Positions 3,701 to 53,822 of a stretch of DNA of 64,000 bases are shown here, piece after piece. The position numbers were made by a program, and so were the translations under genes. Under the pieces are notes generated by a model that was not told where the DNA came from, did not search any database, and saw nothing but the letters and a program-made list of their open reading frames with translations. Source of the DNA: Bacteroidales bacterium. Its GTDB lineage: Bacteria; Bacteroidota; Bacteroidia; Bacteroidales; JAADJA01. The stretch lies in the NCBI GenBank assembly GCA_030596605.1, contig JAUVJI010000003.1, positions 3,346 to 67,345 on the forward strand. The letters run 5' to 3'. Numbering within the stretch: position 1 is the stretch's first letter; every line of letters starts with the position of its first letter.

Positions 3701-6700
3701 AACATTCACCTTAAAGCCTCCCCGGTATTCTTCGAGGATGGGAATTTCAATTTTGCGTTGCTCATCCGAAAGTTTTAGCCACTGCCTGCTTATTGTTTTT
3801 TCTTTATACGTCACTTCATACAACACCCTCACATTTTTATCTTTTGTTCCAATTATAATAGCTGCATTTTCACCGGGCTCTCCCTTTTCCTTTAAAATAT
3901 GGAACCAATTGATCTCGTTGACCGGTGGCTTTTTGGCATCCTTTGAAAAGAGGGTAAAATATTTGGTCAATTCAACCTTTTCACCATAGCTGTCGGTTGT
4001 TTGAACATTAACAGCATAGCGGCCTGCCTTCCATTTAGCAGTTTCGGATAAAGTAATTATAGAATCTGATCCGGTATCGAAATCCAATGTTTCCACAACT
4101 GACTCTTCCTGCAGTTTATCCATTCTACCTTCATTGCCATACGCATCCAAAGGAAAATATTTTATATAATCTTCTTTTGAAATGATTTGAATATCTGGTA
4201 CGGAACCCCATTTTTTATCCCTCAATAATCGTTCAGGTTCCTTTAACTTCGTAAAAGTAATTTTTCCTTTTGCCAGTACAGGTTGCCCATTCCAATTTGC
4301 TGTAACTATTTTAATGTCTTTCAGGTCATTTTTTTCAATGGTTTCTTCAATTCCAAACTTGATACCCAAAGCTGTATATCCTACGCCAACTTCAGTTGTT
4401 GCGGATTGGGTTTCACCATTCATATCTGTTATATCGGCAAAGATTCTGTAAAAGAAAACCGGATTATATTTTGACGATACGGTGTGATCGGGAATGGCTT
4501 TGAATTCAATCGTAAATTCACCGTTTTCATTTGTATTTGTTGTGCCATTGATTATTTCCATGGTCGGTTGGCCCGGATAAATATCATATGCCCAATACCT
4601 GTATGGAAGACGTAAATGACGCAAAACCCTGAATTTTACCGATGCATTGTCGATATTGCTGCCGGCATAAGCTTTTGCATTTCCGGTGACCTGCACATTT
4701 TCGTTAAGCTTATAGCTTCCCTGTACAGGATTAAATACTACTTCAAATTTTGGCCGTTTGTATTCCTCGACTGAAATATTAATTGAACCGGTATTATTTC
4801 TAATGGTCATATTACCATTTAAAACCCCTTTGGGTGCAATGAATGATCCGTTGAAAGAACCGTATTCATTGGTTACCAGTTCGAATTCAGAAATTTTCTG
4901 ATAATTCACATTATAAAATTCAACGGTGGTTTTATAATCCTGTTTTATTTCATAATTATTTCCTAATTTATCAATGACAATCCCTTTAAAATAGATGGTT
5001 TGACCTGGGCGATAAATGGCCCTATCGGTGAATAACCAGGTTTTGGTTTGTTTTTTTTCTTCAGCGGGTGAATGAGCCGAATGGTAATACCTTTCGCCTG
5101 TAACAAGTTTCTCATTTCCTTTTGTGAATTCTATAAAAAAGGAATTGCGCCCGCTGTTTCCCTGTTGAGCCGGAATCTCAATAAAACCATCACCATCTGA
5201 AATAAAGCTATCTCCCTTTACATACTCGTATGAACGTGATTGATAATTATAGTTTTTGTAGAAAACCTGGGCCGTTACACCTTCCAAAGCAATGCCCGAA
5301 GTACGATCCATTACAAAAAATTTCTTTGTCCCACTTTTAGAATCCTGAGAAATGTAGCTGATATTGGAAACCCAAAATGTGGTTGAAGCAAAGTAGTTAC
5401 TATCGGTATTAAATTCCTGATCGTTACAAGCCAATAAAACAAAAAAGCCCAAAGGCAGTTCCGGTATTTTTATTTCTGTTGCATGTTTTTGAAAATCACC
5501 GTCACCGGGTAAATCAATATCCCAGGTTGTAAAAGCGGGCAATGAATTGTATTTATCCAATAGCTCCTTATTGATCCTGTAATTTTGTGTAATTTCCCTG
5601 TATTGGCCGTGTTCAAGATTGATTAACTTGAAAAAAACTTTTGGAGTGTTTCGAAATTCCAGAAATGAAAGTGATGGTTTTTGCGGAACATAAACACCTT
5701 CAACTTTCAATTGTAAATCCGGCTTTTCAATTTGTGAAAGCAACACCCGGCAATTTTGTGCTCCGTCAGATTCAGGGAAGCGTTTAATGGCTTCCTGGCA
5801 TTTTTCATAAGCTTTTTTGGTTTCCCATTTGTATTGATCTGAAATTAATAAGGGTTTGTATTGCCTTCCTTTATTTTGGTATGCTTTGGCAATTTCATAA
5901 CTTACTTCTGTTGATGAAGGATACGCCAAAATTCTATTTTCCATTTGCTCCAATCTGTTGAGATAAAGGCTGTCCTTAAGCGGCAGGATTGAATTTTGAT
6001 GAACAAATTTTAATCGTTTCAAATTTACATCTACCATAGCGGTTGGTTCTTCATCATTCAAATGAAAACCAATCAGATCCTGCAAAATCTGCATAGCGTA
6101 AAATTTCAGGGAAAGTGAATCGCGGGTTTCCAATTTTAACTTACTAAAAGTTAGTGCCTTTGAAAAATATTCTTCTTTATCCAATTCAAATTTGTAAACC
6201 GGTTGAATAATGGAAGATTCATCATTCATAAAAAAGTCTACTGCACGGTGAGCCAAAAAGTCGTACAAAGTTGGCCTGTATTTTTTCGATTCTTTGGTAG
6301 TTTCCAATATTACATCATAGGCTTTTAAATCTGTGATCTTTAACTCATCACTGTTTTCAAGTGAAGCCTGGTAATTATTAATTACTTCATTCAAAAGTGT
6401 CTTCAAGTCCCACGTACGAATATCTTCTTTTTCAATATTTACAGCCGTTGTCCTGTCAAGAAATTTGTACCTGTTGGCCTGGTAATAACGCCAGTAAATA
6501 TCGGCTGTTATTGAATGCAGAATTTGTTTAACAGGAGTTTCAGCTTTTGCTATTTGCAATTGCATATCCTGAATGATCTTCTCGATAAACTCTTCCTCAA
6601 AGTCAGATTTGAGTTTGATTTTGTATAATATGGCTTTTATGTATTGGGGATGATTATCTTCCTTTTGAGATTTGTCATAAATCGCATCAACCATGTTCAG

Positions 6701-9010: not shown

Positions 9011-12000
9011 TTATTTTACCAGTGTAAATTTAACACTTTCTATTGAATTTCCATTAATTAATAATGTTGCAATATACACGCCCGATTTCCAGTTTTCGGT
9101 TACTATCGTTATCTGGTCTTGTTTCCCGGTAGTTGTTAATGTATGGATTGTTTTACCTGTAACATCCTTGATTTGAATACTGAAATCTGCTTCTGTTTCC
9201 AGTTTGTATTCCAATATCACATAATCCTTAGATGGGTTGGGATATACTTCAAGCATTTGTGGCGGTTTGGTATTGACAAGATTATTGTATTCCTCTATTG
9301 CTTCTGATGACTTGTAGGGATCAGAAAACAGAATAGGTTCTTCGTACTCCAGTTCACCAATGGCCATCAGTATATTCCTTGCATAAGCCCTTGCAGGTAT
9401 TGTTCCTCCTGATGCCAGCGCTTGTAATTCTGTTAACTGGCTTGCCGTTAAGGAAGCAATGGTATTACCGTTTTCATACAAGTCTGAGAGCATGATATAA
9501 ATATCTAACATTTCGGTGTATCTCTGCTGCTCATCTTCATCAAGATTAAACAAGGCCGGAATGTTATTTATTATATTTTCTCCCAACTGGTACTCACCCT
9601 GTTCAAGGTATAACCAGGCAAGGCGGTAATTACTATTTAAAGTATTGTCTTCCTGGTACAGGGCCAGGATGCTGTCGGATGCTGCCTGATGTTCCAGTTG
9701 CTCATTGTAATAACGGATAATGTTGTTCATGGCTATTGCCTTTTCCAGTTTATATCCTGCCAGTTGCGCTTCCAGTTCCTGTTTCAGGTTTTGAATACTG
9801 CGGCCTGCCAGTATCTGGGCTTTCATATATTCGGGCATAGGATCGAAGCGTTCATCCAGTTTTTCGAGTAATACCAGTGATTTGGCCGTATGTGGGTTGG
9901 CTACCATTACATTACGTACCATTGCATTCGGAAGTACTGTTTCCTTTTCAATAGTGCTTTCTACTACAGTTTCCGACAAGTTTGGCGATTCGCTCATCAG
10001 TTCGTTATATACCTGCACTGTTTCGGGTGGGGTGCTGGTTTCAACTTCGGTATTTAATGCTTCGGTATCACCGCCGTCTATCATTGCTGTTAATATTGCT
10101 TCGGTGCTTTCGATCCCCGATTGGGCATCGCTCATTTTACCTCTTTCATCTTCTATACCGCCACCACCGCCGGGGTTGATTCCCGATTCGCAGGCCTCCT
10201 CAAGGCTCCACTCTAATGTTGTAGGTTTTCCATGCTTATCCACCGTAACATCAAATTGGGCATCCATAGGTTCGACATTATTATTGCTTGCATTAGTAGA
10301 GAAATAATAATCAATATAGTTAGCCGTATTGTCGATATCATCATAATCGGCAGCACTGGTTTCATAATAAAAAATATTGCCTGCCATGTCTTCGATGTTT
10401 AGTGTACCTTCTCCCTGGTTTCCTGCTATACCTGCATCACTATGTATTATTGGATGTTCCCAGATAATGGTTTCGTCCGCACCTGTATCATTATAGTCGT
10501 TACACTTGATTACTAATCCTTCTTTCGGACTTTTTCCGTTGCGGTTTTTCCCCTGTACCTTGATGGCTTCTTCTACATAGTTAAACTCATTCAGGTAGAT
10601 CTGGTTGGGATCCCTGCCCGATTCGTTGACTATGATACCGATGCCTATAGGGTCAGGTGGTTGAGTAATTGAAGGATCTTTTGAAACTCGTTATCTTCTA
10701 CCCAATAATCAGTGCATTCATCAAGATATAACCCATATCCATTACTGCCAACATCCAGATCAAACTGAAATAAATTTGATGTCACCCTGGGTGAGGTCAT
10801 GCCGCTAAGATAAACTCCTCTGTAATTGTTAATAAAATCAGTATGACGGATGTCAACTTTCCGGGTAGTTGTGGCAGCTGTGGCATATACACCGTATTCC
10901 AGGTTGATAAATTCGCCGTTATCCCATTCATCGCAATCGGAAGGCGTTCCCGAAACACAATCACCCTCAATAAATATGGTAGATTTTTCGCTTAATATCC
11001 CGGTATATTCGGGTTCAGAGGTTTTTTCATTTAAAAAATTACAGAAGGTAACATCCACTCCTGTCATATTTTCAACAACCATATAGTTTACAGGTTCTTC
11101 ATAACCGAAATAGCTATCGTCCAGTTTGAAAACACAATTGTTGAAGTAGCTAACACTGATGTGCGGGTAAGAATAAAATTGGATGGCTGTCTGGTTATTG
11201 ATGAACTGGGCATCGCTGGCCTGGATGATGCCACCGGTAAAACTATAGTTAGGCAGATTATCTTCAGGAGGTGGTACATACTCCATTTTGACAGCACGGA
11301 TCGCACAAATAGCATTCTTGATAGTGCTTTGATTTAAAGCTCCTGACTCTATCTCTACCCAACCCTGGTCAATTGGATTTTGCCCAGCTGTTGATGTACC
11401 CCATACTTCAATACCGGCCCACAATTCATTATCATTAACGCTGGTAAGCGTACATCCATCTAATTCAAGTTTTCCACCTCTTTCTAAAATTATTTTCCCA
11501 TTTTCTACAAAACCAACTGTTACCCCTTCAGAGATGGTTAAAGTACTTCCAGAACAAATTCTGATCTCATCAGCATAAGTTACATTTTCATCCCAGGTTA
11601 CGTGTGTATTATCACATATTTGTAATGATGTGGGCAAGGTAAATGTATCAAAATCATTTTTCCACGTACTAAGGCCATCATCATAATGATTTATTATGAT
11701 ATCCATAAAGTCATCTTCGATATTTATTTTTGCAAAATGATGAAAACTTTCAGCTTTTAATCCGCCGGAACCAGGAATATAGAGAGGTGCTCCACCTCCA
11801 CCTAATGTTAAATGATGAACGCCATTTACCAGCCAATGAGCATAATAGTGATAATGACCTGCAATAACTAATTGAACATTATATTGTTCACACATTGGTT
11901 GAATAATATTTTGTACATGCTCATTATTATCTTCCTCACCACTGTTGGAGTATCCTGGTGCATGAAAAAAAATTATTTTCCATTTTTTATCCGTAATTGT

Positions 12001-48098: not shown

Positions 48099-48842
48099 GT
48101 GAAAACCGGTAATCTGATAAATATCATTAAAAAAATAGTACTGATTTTAAGAAAACTTTTAAAGTACTTCATTTTTATAGTAGGAATCATAGCTATTATC
48201 GTATTTATTTTGAGTTTTACAAGCCTGCCTTTTTGGGGTTATTACTGGTTGGGAACTTCTGCCCTGACTGATGAGCATTCACCAGAACATATTATTGTTA
48301 TGGGCGGTAGTGCAATGCCAGGGAAATCAGGACTTATGCGAACATTCTACGCTGCCGAAATTGCTGAAAAATATCCAGAGGTCAATATCATCATAGCATT
48401 GCCCGGAGATATAAAGGATGATAAAAGCTCTCTGAACCTGATGAAAAAGGAATTGGTAATACGTGACATTCCTTCTCATAGAATAGCTTTTGAAAATATA
48501 GGAAAAAACACGAGGTTTCAGGTTTTGGAAATCAAAAAAATAATTCCGGATAATCAGGCACATATTATCATTGTAACATCTCCGGAACATATGCGTAGAG
48601 CAATTTTAGCTTTTAAAAAGGTGGGATATCAAAATGTTGGCGGATTACCTGCATTTGAAGATGTTCATGATTTTGACCTTGTTTTTGAAGATAAAGACCT
48701 GGGAGGGAAAAATAAATTTTTACCGGAAATTGGAGATAACATTAAGATCAGGTACCAGTTCTGGAAGCACCTTGAATATGAAATAATTTTTACCAGAGAA
48801 ATAATTGCCCTTGGTTATTATAGATTGAAGGGCTGGATATAA
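48099..48842 (+). CDS. YdcF/DUF218 (ElyC/SanA-like) membrane-anchored protein
   Basis: N-terminal TM; IIVMGG, ENIGKNT and VTSPEHMRRA motifs. Confidence 0.85.
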   Translation: MKTGNLINIIKKIVLILRKLLKYFIFIVGIIAIIVFILSFTSLPFWGYYWLGTSALTDEHSPEHIIVMGGSAMPGKSGLMRTFYAAEIAEKYPEVNIIIALPGDIKDDKSSLNLMKKELVIRDIPSHRIAFENIGKNTRFQVLEIKKIIPDNQAHIIIVTSPEHMRRAILAFKKVGYQNVGGLPAFEDVHDFDLVFEDKDLGGKNKFLPEIGDNIKIRYQFWKHLEYEIIFTREIIALGYYRLKGWI

Positions 48843-48876
48843 ACCAAATAATTAGAACATATAAAATTTATAGATT

Positions 48877-50523
48877 ATGGAAAGTAAAGACAGACAGTTT
48901 GCTGTAACTCCTCAGGGAGAATCATTTCCACTCCCTTTTAAAGAAGAATACGATGGAGAATATCTCAGGATGGAGAAACTGGCAAAAGAAGCCAGGGCAG
49001 AGGGTAAAGAGATAGTCGTTGTTATGGGACTGGGGTTTGTTGGTGTTGTAATGGCTGCAATAGTAGCTGACACAAAAGATGAAAATGGAAATTATTCAAA
49101 ATTCGTTATTGGATATCAACGTCCAAGTGTCAGAAGTTTTTGGAAAATACCGCTGGTAAATCGTGGCGAATCCCCGGTGAAAGCTGAAGATCCTGAAGTT
49201 GATGAACTGATCACAAGAACTACCACAGAAGCGAAAACATTTGTCGCTACTTTCAACAGTGATTGTTTAAAACTGGCTGATGTAGTAGTAGTAGATGTTC
49301 AATGTGATTATGCCAAGCAAGACCTTGGAGATATGCGGACAGGCGAAACCGACATGGCAGCACTGGAAGCATCCATGAGAACAATAGGTGAAACCATTCC
49401 CCCTCACGCATTGGTTTTAATTGAAACCACAGTTGCTCCCGGTACCACTGAATTTGTAGCATGGCCAATTCTGAAAAAAGCATTTGCAAATCGGGGACTG
49501 AAAGAAACACCATTACTTTCACATAGTTTTGAGCGCGTTATGCCGGGTAAGGAATATGTTTCCTCTATCCGTGATTTCTGGCGCGTTTGCTCAGGATGTG
49601 ACAAAGAAGCAAGGGATAAGGTGGAAAAATTTCTGCACGAAGTATTGAATACCAAGGAATTCCCACTGACAGTTATGGACAGGCCAATTGAGTCGGAAAC
49701 AACCAAGATCGTTGAAAACTCATACCGTGCAACTACCCTTGCATTCTTGAACGAATGGAGCCTCTTTTCCGAGCGCAATGGTGTTGACCTGATCAAAGTG
49801 ATGAATGCAATAAAAATGCGCCCGACACACAGCAATATGATTTTCCCGGGACCCGGCATCGGTGGTTATTGTTTGCCAAAAGACGGTGGTTTGGGATATT
49901 GGGCGTATCGTCATATACTGGGATTTGAAGATGGTGATGAAGTATTTAAAATTACCCCAACTGCAATAGATATAAATGACACCAGGGGTTTGCATGTTGC
50001 TGAACTAACACGGGATGCCCTTAGAAATATGGGAAGATACATTGCCGGTTCCGAAGTTCTTATTGCCGGAGCAAGCTATCGGCAGGATGTGGGTGATACA
50101 CGTTACAGCGGAAGCGAATTGGTGGTTCGAAAATTAACTGAAATGGGAGCGGATATGAGAGTTCATGATCCTTATGTTGATCATTGGTATGAATTCGAAA
50201 CACAAGATGAAAGCCCGGAAGAATCCTGGGCGAGATTCTTCCGTAACCAGGATCAGTTAACAGAAACTGTGGTTGAAAAAGACCTGCCAAAAGCGCTTAA
50301 AGGCGTTGAAGCATTGATCCTTGCCGTTCCACATAAGCAATACCTGGAGTTGAAACCTGAAGATATCGTAAAATGGGCCGGTGGACCTATAGCTATTGTT
50401 GATGCATTTGGAATTTTGTCCGATGACAAGATCAGAAAGTATTTTGAATTAGGTTGTGAAGTAAAAGCATTGGGACGCGGACATATTCAGCGGATTAAAA
50501 AGGAGATAAAGAATAATAAATAG
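48877..50523 (+). CDS. UDP-glucose/GDP-mannose dehydrogenase family protein
   Basis: GLGFVG, ETTVAPGTT, KIVENSYR and GIGGYCLPKD motifs. Confidence 0.9.
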   Translation: MESKDRQFAVTPQGESFPLPFKEEYDGEYLRMEKLAKEARAEGKEIVVVMGLGFVGVVMAAIVADTKDENGNYSKFVIGYQRPSVRSFWKIPLVNRGESPVKAEDPEVDELITRTTTEAKTFVATFNSDCLKLADVVVVDVQCDYAKQDLGDMRTGETDMAALEASMRTIGETIPPHALVLIETTVAPGTTEFVAWPILKKAFANRGLKETPLLSHSFERVMPGKEYVSSIRDFWRVCSGCDKEARDKVEKFLHEVLNTKEFPLTVMDRPIESETTKIVENSYRATTLAFLNEWSLFSERNGVDLIKVMNAIKMRPTHSNMIFPGPGIGGYCLPKDGGLGYWAYRHILGFEDGDEVFKITPTAIDINDTRGLHVAELTRDALRNMGRYIAGSEVLIAGASYRQDVGDTRYSGSELVVRKLTEMGADMRVHDPYVDHWYEFETQDESPEESWARFFRNQDQLTETVVEKDLPKALKGVEALILAVPHKQYLELKPEDIVKWAGGPIAIVDAFGILSDDKIRKYFELGCEVKALGRGHIQRIKKEIKNNK

Positions 50524-50530
50524 ATTACTG

Positions 50531-50586
50531 ATATTCGTCCGACCACTGCGCGTAAGGCAAGCGTTCAGGCAGTGGTCAGACGAATA
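50531..50586. repeat. 56-bp palindromic element, copy 1
   Basis: ATATTCGTCCGACCACTGCGCGTAAGGCAAGCGTTCAGGCAGTGGTCAGACGAATA; 17-bp arms with one mismatch. Confidence 0.92.
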
Positions 50587-50590
50587 AGGA

Positions 50591-51859
50591 TTATTTGACT
50601 ACAATAGCTTTTTTAACCAAAAGGCTATTGCCAGAAACCAATTTATAAAAGTAAATCCCATTGGGTACTTTTTGTCCGGCATCATCATCACCGTACCATT
50701 TAATATCGTATTTCCCGGAAACAAAAGACTGATTATTGATTAATGTCTTTACCCTGTTACCTTTGGAATCAATTACAACCATCGACATTGTTGAAATAGC
50801 TTTCTTCAGCTCAAATTCAATCGTTGTAAAATTTTCGAATGGATTGGGATAACAGTTATTTAAAAAAAGGTGTTGTGAGGTTGTGGGTAAAATATCAGTT
50901 TCTTCTTCATTTATTCCGGTAAGTAAAGTATCTCCACGCGGATTCACTACACCATCAATCATGTAAAACTTTTGTTCAAACTCAAAAGTAGATATAGTGT
51001 TGCATATTTCATCACCAATGGTATCAATTGGAAATCCTAATGTAGTATCTGCAAAAATTGAACCTACTCCCAAATAACAATTATCTAAAAAGCCCCCAAA
51101 TAGGACAACTATGTCATAATCACAAGGTCCACCGAAAAAACCTCCAACACTATTTAATATATTACACCCAAAAACTAAAGGGGAAGGGTAATTTTCAGTA
51201 TCCTGAAAAAATGACCAAACGTTACACCATATTGCTATTCCCCTGAAAAAATTCTTAAATGTGCAATAACTCACTATTGGGTAGCTTTGGCCTTTTATTC
51301 CAATAGCAGAACATCCTCCTTCTTCAGCATTTGTACCCATATACATAATTGTACAATGATCAATAATTGGTGAAGCATTCTCACAAAAAATAGCTGTTTC
51401 TTTGTCATCGTCAATATGTGTTGCTGCTCGTATAGTGCAATATTTAAGAATACTTTCTCCATTTTTCGAAGCATTAATAAATTCAATTCCATTCCACCAA
51501 TGTCCGCTGCCAGCAGTAAAGGTTGCTTCAGGATCACCTAAATGAATGGGTTCTTCGACAGTACCAGCAGCTAAAATACATCCGTAAATTATCATCCCCC
51601 GTTTTATTGTATAAGGCGATATATAACTAATAAACAAAACAGTTTCACCTGGTAAAATCCTTAATGTGTCATTTTCCAAAATGGTAATATCGCAATCCAC
51701 TTCATACATTTGGTCAACCGTATTATAGTTTATATCATCGCTTAACAGGCAAAGCGTATCCATCGTATAGCACACCCCTTCATTGGAGGATGTCCAGGCG
51801 GAGAGGTTTTGAATTGAAAACAACAGAACCAATAATATTGAAAGGAGAAAAGACTTCAT
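50591..51859 (-). CDS. Secreted parallel beta-helix protein with FlgD-Ig/T9SS-type C-terminal domain
   Basis: Signal peptide; WNGIEF and SPIIDHCTI beta-helix motifs; CYPNPF...KWYGDDDAGQKVPNGIYFYKL. Confidence 0.85.
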   Translation of the reverse strand: MKSFLLSILLVLLFSIQNLSAWTSSNEGVCYTMDTLCLLSDDINYNTVDQMYEVDCDITILENDTLRILPGETVLFISYISPYTIKRGMIIYGCILAAGTVEEPIHLGDPEATFTAGSGHWWNGIEFINASKNGESILKYCTIRAATHIDDDKETAIFCENASPIIDHCTIMYMGTNAEEGGCSAIGIKGQSYPIVSYCTFKNFFRGIAIWCNVWSFFQDTENYPSPLVFGCNILNSVGGFFGGPCDYDIVVLFGGFLDNCYLGVGSIFADTTLGFPIDTIGDEICNTISTFEFEQKFYMIDGVVNPRGDTLLTGINEEETDILPTTSQHLFLNNCYPNPFENFTTIEFELKKAISTMSMVVIDSKGNRVKTLINNQSFVSGKYDIKWYGDDDAGQKVPNGIYFYKLVSGNSLLVKKAIVVK

Positions 51860-51909
51860 CGTCTTGCAAATTATATTGAAGTTAAAATTACAACTTTTTC
51901 ATGAATTGA

Positions 51910-51965
51910 ATATTCGTCCGACCACTGTGCATAAGGCAGGCGCACTGGCAGTGGTCAGACGAATA
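51910..51965. repeat. 56-bp palindromic element, copy 2 (direct repeat of copy 1)
   Basis: ATATTCGTCCGACCACTGTGCATAAGGCAGGCGCACTGGCAGTGGTCAGACGAATA; 50/56 identical to copy 1. Confidence 0.92.
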
Positions 51966-52058
51966 GATACCATTTAAAATCATTACTGTTTTAACAATAA
52001 ATAAGACATTTTTGCAGTTTTTTTGAGTAATTTTGCATTATAACTGACAATTTGATAC

Positions 52059-53288
52059 ATGGATGTTCAGGCGATAAAACTACGGTTTGGTATTATAGGA
52101 ACTTCTCCTTTATTAGACAGGGCGATTGATATTGCACGACAGGTGGCCCCCACTGACCTTACAGTATTGATTACAGGGGCAAGTGGGGTTGGAAAAGAAG
52201 CGTTTCCAAAAATCATACACCAGCTTAGTTCAAGAAAGCATGGACCATATATTGCTGTAAACTGTGGCGCTATCCCTGAAGGGACAATTGATTCAGAATT
52301 ATTCGGACATGAGAAAGGATCTTTCACCGGCGCCCATGATGCAAGAAAAGGATACTTTGAAGTTGTAAACACAGGTACCATTTTTTTGGATGAAATAGCT
52401 GAACTCCCGCTGTCAACTCAAGTAAGGTTACTTCGTGTTTTGGAATCAGGAGAATTTCTGAAAGTAGGTTCTTCTAAAGTAATTAAAACCGATGTAAGAG
52501 TAGTAGCAGCAACCAATATGGATATTCTTGAGGCAATTAGTAATGGAAAGTTCAGGGAAGATCTTTACTATCGCTTAAATACGGTTCCTATAATAGTGCC
52601 GGCACTAAAAGAAAGAAAAGAAGACATTCACCTTCTTTTCAGAAAATTTGCCACTGATTTTGCTGAAAAATACAGGATGCCGGCTCTTCAACTTGACCAA
52701 GGGGCCATTAAAATTCTTGTTAATTACAGATGGCAGGGAAATGTCAGACAATTAAAAAATATTACAGAACAAATATCAATAATTGAGAAAACCAGGGAAA
52801 TAAATGCCCAGACACTTTCAAAATATCTTCCACGAAGTCATAACAGGGATCTTCCGGTCTTATATCGTCGAGATGAAGAAAGAAAAGAAATATCGGAGCG
52901 TGACTTGCTTTACAAGGTATTGTTCGATATGAAAAAAGACATTAACGATCTAAAGGGGGTGGTTGGTGAAATACTTCAAAATGAAGATGCCACCAAAGAC
53001 ATTCAGCAAAACAATGCTCAATTGATAAAAAAACTTTATCAAAATATTGAGTCAACTGAAGAACAAGCAGATGACATTCATATCCATTATCCTCAGGATG
53101 TCCACATTGATGAACCCATACAGGAATCAGAGGTGATTGAGGAATCTCTTTCAATACAGGAGAAAGAGGTTGACCTTATAAGAAAAGCGCTGACCAAACA
53201 TAATGGTAAACGAAAAAATGCAGCCAGGGAGCTGGGAATATCAGAACGTACACTTTATCGAAAAATTAAGGAACACCATATCATTTAA
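52059..53288 (+). CDS. Sigma54-dependent Fis-family transcriptional activator without a receiver domain
   Basis: GASGVGKE, ELFGHEKGSFTGA, FLDEI and FREDLYYRL motifs; C-terminal HTH. Confidence 0.92.
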   Translation: MDVQAIKLRFGIIGTSPLLDRAIDIARQVAPTDLTVLITGASGVGKEAFPKIIHQLSSRKHGPYIAVNCGAIPEGTIDSELFGHEKGSFTGAHDARKGYFEVVNTGTIFLDEIAELPLSTQVRLLRVLESGEFLKVGSSKVIKTDVRVVAATNMDILEAISNGKFREDLYYRLNTVPIIVPALKERKEDIHLLFRKFATDFAEKYRMPALQLDQGAIKILVNYRWQGNVRQLKNITEQISIIEKTREINAQTLSKYLPRSHNRDLPVLYRRDEERKEISERDLLYKVLFDMKKDINDLKGVVGEILQNEDATKDIQQNNAQLIKKLYQNIESTEEQADDIHIHYPQDVHIDEPIQESEVIEESLSIQEKEVDLIRKALTKHNGKRKNAARELGISERTLYRKIKEHHII

Positions 53289-53309
53289 TCTATTCGGTTA
53301 GTTCAGAAG

Positions 53310-53822
53310 ATGATTATTAAACACATTAAAATACTGTCCTTAACCATGGTCATTATATTTTTACATGGATGTAAAATGAACTATTCGTTTACGGGGGCTT
53401 CTATTCCACCTGATGTAAAAACGATCAACATCATGTATTTTCCAAATAATGCTTCTCTTGTAGCGCCCACACTTAGCCAAAAATTAACTGATGGGATGAG
53501 GGACAAGTTCACTTCTGAAACAAGTCTGGATTTGGTTAATGAGGGAGGCGACCTTATTTTGGAAGGATCTATTACACGATACCGGACATCACCAGTAGCA
53601 ATTCAGGGAGATGACCAAGCAGCATTAAACAGGCTTACCATTACCATTGAGGTAACTTATACAAATACCTTTGAAGAAAATATGAGTTTTGAATCATCCT
53701 TTTCAAGGTATGCCGATTATTCGAGCAGTGATAATCTGAACGATATACAGGAAGGACTGATTGAAGAAATAAATGTGATGTTAATAGAAGATGTCTTTAA
53801 CAAAGCTGTTGTGAATTGGTAA
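53310..53822 (+). CDS. lptE: LptE family lipoprotein
   Basis: LHGC lipobox; YSFTGASI and NRLTITI motifs; typical Bacteroidota context. Confidence 0.8.
   Translation: MIIKHIKILSLTMVIIFLHGCKMNYSFTGASIPPDVKTINIMYFPNNASLVAPTLSQKLTDGMRDKFTSETSLDLVNEGGDLILEGSITRYRTSPVAIQGDDQAALNRLTITIEVTYTNTFEENMSFESSFSRYADYSSSDNLNDIQEGLIEEINVMLIEDVFNKAVVNW

Follow-up and report, generated by a model that had tools for sequence, protein, structure and literature searches.

Two direct copies of one hairpin enclose a single gene in the stretch of DNA analysed here, and the question is what kind of element such an arrangement represents. The stretch, hereafter the window, comprises 64,000 nucleotides of a Bacteroidales bacterium (GenBank assembly GCA_030596605.1, contig JAUVJI010000003.1; G000:C3:3346-67345 in our notation, G000 being the source genome). 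The source genus is one of uncultured marine-sediment Bacteroidales. The original prediction had offered two answers, namely an integron-like cassette with a new class of recombination site or a unit resembling the repetitive extragenic palindromes (REPs) that is handled in trans by a REP-associated tyrosine transposase (RAYT). We find that the second answer is the better one. With a probability of about 0.8 the hairpins are a low-copy REP family of a RAYT (TnpA_REP, HUH/Y1 transposase) system in this Bacteroidales genus. The focal structure is real, yet it belongs with the known REP/RAYT elements and is no new cassette system.

We assign the hairpins to the REP/RAYT systems because hairpin arrays flank and invade a RAYT gene in two relatives. 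The source assembly (4.34 Mb, 218 contigs, 87.7% complete) was compared with 28 other species of the genus, that is 29 genomes with G000. In one of these relatives (G018:C77) a 246-aa open reading frame (ORF) has at least four tandem hairpin units just upstream and more from 3 nt past its stop codon, and three further units are inserted in frame within the gene. Its ortholog in G042:C514, which is 89% identical, shows the same layout. On either side of the RAYT the arrays run head to tail with a period of about 45 nt. The in-frame insert follows directly after the HUH motif and leaves the frame open in both species, the G018 version exceeding that of G042 by 16 aa. The two ORFs match the NCBIfam family NF047646 REP_Tyr_transpos (E 2.7e-13 for G018 and 1.4e-13 for G042), and their sole match in the PDB is the E. 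coli TnpA_REP protein (4ER8). An alignment with hairpin-free homologs and two RAYTs of G000 reveals invariant N-H-x-H and Y-I-H-x-N-P motifs, which read NHFH and YIHQNP in G018 and G042.

Within the source genome the hairpin is a dispersed repeat. A fuzzy search with the 15-nt arm gave 78 matches, from which the full-length hairpins with paired arms were picked. The family so defined has 17 full copies on 10 contigs; in addition there are two 31-nt short forms on two more contigs (G000:C192:11919-11949 and G000:C214:12599-12629), which have the same arms around a 4-nt loop and could be centre-deleted derivatives or a minimal form. All 19 copies are intergenic when judged against ORFs of at least 100 aa. 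Most (14 of 19) follow a stop codon by no more than 52 nt, two are 86-198 nt away from one, and the remaining three, one of the focal copies among them, are in divergent promoter regions. Where a copy follows the end of a single gene its orientation is opposite to that gene in seven of eight cases. The copies are diverged from each other, with no pair closer than 4 differences over 51 positions and a median of 12. Identical copies at unlinked loci are found in the relative G006, which suggests that the family may have been recently active there.

We aligned 43 copies from eight genomes, one of the two focal copies (copy A, Table 1) among them. The arms of 14-15 nt are nearly invariant, and the centre between them, about 21 nt long, is variable and asymmetric. 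Across this alignment 92% of the outer-stem cells are paired. One stem position (columns 7 and 46) lacks pairing in 36 of the 43 copies, with A.A or C.A as the usual combinations. The consensus ends read TA-TTCGTC ... GACGAA-T, the CGTC being placed 2 nt in from the hairpin end, and GTAG is found at neither foot of the consensus. The original prediction had also seen a short inner stem. This stem does form in the two focal copies, but it is not a feature of the family, as it is paired in only 67% of the cells and 118 of 500 shuffles reach the observed covariation score.

The focal locus itself (Table 1) was described correctly in its layout: at the same coordinates we find two direct 56-bp hairpins, 1379 bp apart from start to start, and the only ORF between them is the minus-strand gene of a secreted protein of 422 aa. 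It also holds that the arms (TATTCGTCCGACCACTG / CAGTGGTCAGACGAATA) are the same in copies A and B, with one C.A mismatch each, and that all 6 differences between the copies fall into the hairpin centre. The four arm matches in the window compare with 0.09 expected by chance. Both hairpins fold strongly as DNA on either strand (-15.5 to -17.8 kcal/mol, z -4.9 to -6.2). Copy A is placed where the dehydrogenase gene and the enclosed gene, a cargo gene of the type IX secretion system (T9SS), converge with their 3′ ends; it starts 7 nt past the dehydrogenase stop codon and its end is 4 nt from the stop codon of the cargo gene. Copy B is located 50 nt upstream of the cargo-gene ATG and 93 nt upstream of the ATG of the sigma-54 activator. 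A domain search finds Por_Secre_tail at residues 337-420 of the 422-aa protein, and also FlgD_ig. Contrary to what had been claimed, the gene is not unusually AT-rich. Its GC content of 34.8% equals the genome average (35.6%) and contrasts only with that of the hairpins (53.6%); the gene is therefore not compositionally foreign. No Rfam family was found in the window between 48000 and 54000.

Table 1. Positions of the repeats and genes discussed in the text (numbers without a prefix are window positions)
Feature	Position	Strand	Description
REP hairpin copy A	50531-50586	+	56 nt: 51-nt core 50534-50584 plus TA-type flanks
REP hairpin copy B	51910-51965	+	56 nt, orientation same as copy A
Bracketed gene	50591-51859	-	422 aa, secreted T9SS cargo, C-terminal sorting domain
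Left neighbour	48877-50523	+	548 aa, UDP-glucose/GDP-mannose dehydrogenase family; conserved
Right neighbour	52059-53288	+	409 aa, sigma-54-dependent activator; conserved upstream region ~51990-52058
RAYT with in-frame REP units	L092 4262-5300 (G018:C77); L098 1340-2300 (G042:C514)		
~190-bp repeat	G023:C7, L096 ~2640-2830 and ~4440-4640; G006:C82, L037 gap		
C88 23-nt palindromes	G000:C88:9771-9793 and 10528-10550		flank RAYT 9890-10366
Hymenobacter MAG sites	L168 4237-4294, L185 4562-4616, L172 549-605		

The family shares several traits with the REPs of E. coli and their mosaic clusters (BIMEs). These, too, are described as extragenic, GC-rich, dispersed hairpins which are found mostly 3′ of genes and are associated with a RAYT (PMC3333891, PMC8266576). 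A conserved unpaired stem position is likewise known from the E. coli REPtrons (PMC8266576), where it was reported to be required for cleavage (Corneloup 2021, PMC8266576). As in a REPtron, the transposase gene is flanked by its own repeats, here in the relatives. A published model moreover has new REPs arising at a distance and enclosing genes: if the cut is made some way off from a REP already in place, further REPs would be set down close by, and whole genes could be sequestered (Ton-Hoang 2012, PMC3333891). There are also differences. The E. coli REPs are described as palindromes of 20-40 nt, whereas here a stem of 14-15 bp carries an asymmetric centre of 21 nt and the GTAG is missing; their copies go into the hundreds against 17-19 here, and they form inverted doublets where we see single hairpins. 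Indeed no such inverted REP doublet (REPIN) was found in G000, as all neighbouring copies on the same contig are direct and at least 160 bp apart. Finally, the host is an uncultured Bacteroidales bacterium and the cognate RAYT is not in this assembly.

A second relative is the class of CGTC-tagged REPs, which is reported in Bacteroidetes and, as here, has CGTC near one end and in most cases follows a coding region (Di Nocera et al. 2013, PMC3733652). The hairpins of that class have stems of 8-9 bp and loops of 4-5 nt, in contrast to the 14-15-bp stem and the centre of about 21 nt found here, and in that account they are reported without a dedicated transposase, whereas our repeat flanks a RAYT (PMC3733652).

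With regard to the transposase, subclass 2.4 of the RAYTs (group 4 of Bertels) comes close. The NHFH motif fits the NH[IFV]H given for this subclass (PMC6006769), and REPs inserted in tnpA_REP between HuH and Y with the frame kept, as we observe in G018 and G042, were described as unique to it (Quentin et al. 2018, PMC6006769). Low counts of the flanking repeat were reported for group 4 RAYTs (Bertels et al. 2017), to which the 17-19 copies found here correspond, and Bacteroidetes are given as a main host of the subclasses 2.4 and 2.6 (PMC6006769). The YIHQNP motif, on the other hand, departs from the YIxNNP of subclass 2.4 and fits the YIH[QN]NP of subclass 2.6 (group 5, Bacteroidetes; PMC6006769). 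As the one motif follows the 2.6 pattern but the other the 2.4 pattern, we place the RAYT in neither subclass.

We note that a number of observations weigh against the assignment to a REP/RAYT system. The copy number is far below that of typical REP families, and the GTAG tag is lacking. The NF047646 matches of the two RAYT ORFs reach 50 bits, compared with a curated cut-off of 80, the match being split by the insert, and the Pfam Y1_Tnp match has an E value of only 0.027. In the source genome no REP_Tyr_transpos match is on a contig with a hairpin arm match (at an assembly completeness of 87.7%), and the G018 RAYT has as its best homolog there a protein with 37-46% identity, limited to the N-terminus. 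Nor was a close RAYT homolog detected in the relatives G006 and G023, although copies are numerous in both and some are identical. Gene-enclosing pairs are in excess of what random REP insertion would give (see below). As to a terminator role, a consensus terminator scan calls neither hairpin A nor hairpin B, and a T-tract is absent.

The search for a linked RAYT, which the original prediction had proposed, was thus successful in G018 and G042; in G000 no RAYT with this hairpin was found. Across the genus the hairpin is present at two of 26 RAYT-like loci examined, those of G018 and G042. The source genome has 13 REP_Tyr_transpos matches, three of which are above the cut-off (C84, C88, C168). 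The C88 RAYT was considered as the partner of the hairpin and rejected: it is flanked by different 23-nt palindromes of its own, which have only two copies in G000. Similar 23-nt palindromes were seen by eye in the gaps downstream of PurM in G006 and G023. The RAYTs of C84 and C168 do not qualify either, since no inverted repeats were found around the former and nothing related around the latter. No cognate RAYT was found in G000 and no two copies have fewer than 4 differences; for these reasons the family looks orphaned there, fossil or inactive. Alternatively its RAYT lies in the unassembled 12% of the genome.

How did the gene come to lie between two hairpins? The gap between the dehydrogenase and sigma-54 genes is a variable slot across the genus. 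An ortholog of the dehydrogenase was found in 27 of the 28 other species. In 12 relatives its gene directly adjoins the sigma-54 gene, with gaps of about 100-440 bp and without the hairpin; by our own reading the dehydrogenase gene is there usually followed by an ordinary hairpin and then a T-tract. Other genes occupy the slot in G008, G009/G041 and G016/G007. In G023 the T9SS gene found in the slot is another one and is encoded on the opposite strand; a truncated hairpin comes after it. This gene is bracketed by two near-identical direct copies of an unrelated repeat of about 190 bp that consists of three hairpins, whereas the slot of G006 has the repeat once and no gene. For the ~190-bp repeat there is no Rfam family, only a sub-threshold chance match to a Streptococcus small RNA. 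The gaps of G014, G019 and G012 (L028, L045, L052) contain other small palindromic or repeat-like inserts, so that the gap appears to collect small elements generally.

The bracketed gene is one of five paralogs in the source genome, the other four being located on C42 (two), C161 and C120 with 57-72% identity; those on C42 form a tandem pair (G000:C42:13992-16303, 72% and 57% identity). Homologs are present in five other species. Searches of G002, G003 and G023 did not recover the gene; the G002 contigs break at the bracket. In G003 the dehydrogenase gene is followed by one degenerate hairpin and then by the regulator, and the right flank of this hairpin matches that of copy B. This is a single-hairpin empty site of the kind which the original prediction had proposed to look for. 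In G002, whose dehydrogenase is 99% identical, copy B is conserved with 2 differences and the same right flank, and the contig enters the interior of the bracket by 16 nt, 15 of which match G000. Most probably G002 has the same arrangement as G000 even though its contigs break there. Copy A was seen at the focal site only in G000, among the genomes that could be read. Since copy B is orthologous in G002 and G003 it is old, and it predates the presence of the bracketed gene in this lineage.

We suggest the following course of events. From the known biochemistry of the family, the RAYT would cleave hairpin DNA in its single-stranded form and transfer the strand, and in this way spread the copies. 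Copy A could then have arisen near the resident copy B by action of the RAYT at a distance from this REP, as in the Ton-Hoang model, or because incoming DNA that carried a REP recombined with copy B. In both cases the cargo gene would end up flanked by two direct copies. A bracket of the same appearance would be expected from homologous (Campbell-type) recombination at resident repeats, which would also account for the bracket of ~190-bp repeats in G023. Copy A occupies the place where the relatives have the ordinary hairpin and T-tract, and to judge from this position it probably serves as a shared 3′-end hairpin for two convergent transcripts.

Hairpin pairs around one gene are not restricted to the focal locus. 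In G000 three adjacent pairs enclose a single gene, on C3, on C27 (a 958-aa T9SS protein) and on C48 (a 290-aa Fic protein). We compared this number with 20,000 random placements on our own map of 3192 ORFs and 2059 intergenic regions (40 nt or longer). Of these regions 15 are occupied; the contig-end copy on C133 was left out. At least three brackets were obtained in 0 of the 20,000 placements, two in 0.15% and one in 6%. All copies on multi-copy contigs are co-oriented (seven of seven neighbouring pairs are direct), and the partners of a bracket are closer to each other than random pairs, with distances of 6, 6 and 10 against the median of 12 (P=0.0055). Relatives show similar arrangements: in G006:C127 two copies only 1 difference apart surround a gene for a pyridoxal phosphate-dependent (PLP) decarboxylase, in G006:C11 two copies surround a 163-aa ORF, and in G018:C210 three copies lie within 4 kb. 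The original prediction had set its cassette against a dispersed REP with no preference for bracketing genes and without a single-hairpin site in relatives lacking the gene. The repeat is indeed a dispersed REP, but brackets are commoner than chance and G003 does have such a site.

The single-gene brackets are thus non-random. That the gene moves as a unit does not follow from this: clustering, direct orientation and similarity of the partners are predictions of the model in which the RAYT acts at a distance, and mobility of the gene is not required. Most occupied intergenic regions belong to no bracket, and bracketed genes are found in either orientation relative to the hairpin.

In IS200/IS605 elements such as IS608 two direct subterminal hairpins bound a segment which is excised by a Y1 HUH enzyme as a single-stranded circle. 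Our locus resembles them in that direct hairpins bound a segment; unlike them, it has no transposase between the hairpins, one element is present twice in place of distinct left and right ends, and no conserved target tetranucleotide was identified. The comparison leads to the strongest rival explanation, a translocatable unit bounded by REPs. Two direct REPs and the gene would be released as a circle with one hairpin, either by RAYT cutting both hairpins at the same position or by homologous recombination, and the circle would re-enter at a resident REP. The three brackets among 15 occupied regions, the co-orientation and likeness of the partners and the one-hairpin site of G003 are all in line with this idea. 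So are the G006:C127 pair, as a homolog of its decarboxylase gene in G016 has no hairpins nearby, the difference between G023 and G006 in the ~190-bp repeat, and the proposal that REP units may sequester entire genes (Ton-Hoang 2012, PMC3333891).

Other observations do not fit such a unit. Copies A and B are not mutual closest relatives, since each has 4 differences from the copy on C81 and 6 from the other. A fuzzy arm search found no hairpin arm match on the G000 contigs carrying the four paralogs. In the C48 region, which is the only bracket region where the borders of an insertion or deletion could be mapped, G000 carries 7.1 kb that are absent from G002, and the borders lie 73 nt and 31 nt outside the hairpins; hairpin b of this region stems from a segmental duplication together with the 3′ end of a paralog. 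The slot corresponding to C27 is empty in G006 and the hairpin is absent altogether. At the hydrolase|TatC site the hairpin is found in G000 and G023 and not in G003, G018 and G006, and downstream of ndk it is found in G000 only; this gain and loss of hairpins without a change of genes counts against a gene moving as a unit. Finally, no bracketed gene was seen with hairpins at two different loci. We therefore consider the REP-bounded unit unlikely. The same holds, at slightly longer odds, for the wider claim that direct REP pairs mark single-gene units shuttled by RAYT or by hairpin recombination into and out of intergenic slots. If it were true, a REP-based cassette system would shuffle accessory genes (T9SS cargo, Fic, decarboxylase) among the species of the genus, and the focal locus would be an occupied slot and that of G003 an emptied one.

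Some further details of these regions may be added. The C48 region (G000:C48:10702-23412, L085) is a cluster of genes for secreted proteins, with the Fic-family gene between hairpins b and c. A paralogous pair in it (1148 aa and 837 aa) has in common the C-terminal region, a duplicated 3′ flank and the hairpin, and a further repeat of 45-58 nt is located about 110 nt downstream of hairpins a and b. The single hairpin of G002:C40 was considered as a chimera of the left half of copy c and the right half of copy b. This was rejected, as in the full alignment it proves orthologous to copy a, with 81% identity that extends across both flanks. Directly downstream of ndk, at the position of the G000 hairpin copy, short tandem repeats are found in G003:C18 (L206 ~3925-3965) and G018:C96 (L209 ~118620-118700).

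Sequencing runs offer another view of the focal locus. Logan contigs of run X1 span the dehydrogenase gene, hairpin A and the 3′ end of the bracketed gene, and also hairpin B and the regulator (window 48500-53500). No joint that skips or circularises the 1379-bp unit was found in the runs X1-X4, but as Logan contigs drop rare variants this is uninformative either way. Contigs of X2, X3 and X4 begin or stop at most 14 nt away from hairpin A on its left side (window 50517-50530), which may reflect low depth or the hairpin itself.

In integron cassettes one promoter-proximal gene is bounded by folded imperfect palindromes (attC), and the empty form keeps a single site. The focal locus shares with them the single gene between folded imperfect palindromes and the single-site empty form, seen in G003; in addition both strands fold and an extrahelical or mismatched position is conserved. 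The reading favoured in the original prediction, an integron-like cassette served by a site-specific (tyrosine) recombinase of its own and by sites of a new attC-like class, is nevertheless very improbable. The repeat is dispersed, mostly solitary and unbracketed, there is no cassette array, and the genes are in varied orientation. IntI and the R and L core boxes are lacking, and a direct reading agrees with the prediction that RYYYAAC/GTTRRRY cores are present in neither copy. It had been stated as well that no recombinase is encoded in the window; accordingly, genome searches for the families Phage_integrase, Y1_Tnp and REP_Tyr_transpos gave no match on C3, and the four Phage_integrase matches of the genome are on the hairpin-free contigs C42, C167, C176 and C76. 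Together with the hairpin-free paralog contigs, the C48 borders outside the hairpins and the physical link of the family to a RAYT in two relatives, this leads us to disfavour the cassette.

No more probable is a TA-targeting miniature inverted-repeat transposable element moved by an IS630/mariner-type DDE transposase and unrelated to RAYTs. In its favour there are inverted terminal repeats of 15-17 nt, and TA is found on the 5′ side of 14 of 17 copies and on both sides of seven, which could reflect either extension of the palindrome or a TA duplication. The original prediction had noted no target-site duplication; with these flanks one may be present, and occupied and empty sites are too diverged at the junction for any empty site to align well enough to show it. 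Against such an element, the TA flanks may simply extend the palindrome, invariant arms around a variable asymmetric centre fit a hairpin recognised by a protein, and the repeat is linked to a RAYT gene and inserted into its reading frame, an arrangement described for REPs.

The distribution of the REP family is narrow. The search of the genome and its relatives for the hairpin, likewise suggested in the original prediction, recovered the exact-arm pattern in seven of 28 species (six of 24 same-genus species and one of the four remaining genus members) besides the 17 full and two short copies of G000. It was found in none of 16 genomes from other families of the order. A scan of about 185,000 species, with one genome per species, added as other holders only one metagenome-assembled genome (MAG) of Hymenobacter and one short contig labelled Planctomycetaceae, which holds a typical family member. 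The record titles of the holders are Bacteroidales or Bacteroidetes MAGs, and one MAG is labelled Chlorobiota. The Hymenobacter MAG has three sites (Table 1) with the 14-nt arm core TTCGTCNGACCACT within a longer perfect palindrome that has outer arms and an unrelated centre; no RAYT was found within the 8-kb loci of these sites. Hymenobacter and the family belong to different orders of Bacteroidota, and the common arm core may be a shared protein-recognition core.

In summary, our analysis defines a REP family together with its RAYT in a genus of uncultured marine-sediment Bacteroidales, where descriptions of such systems are scarce. Two further species are now found to have the published arrangement of REPs in frame within a RAYT gene. 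A modest lead is that accessory genes are bracketed far more often than by chance, and the excess of direct brackets with similar partners provides comparative support for the proposal that a RAYT acting at a distance may enclose genes between REPs.

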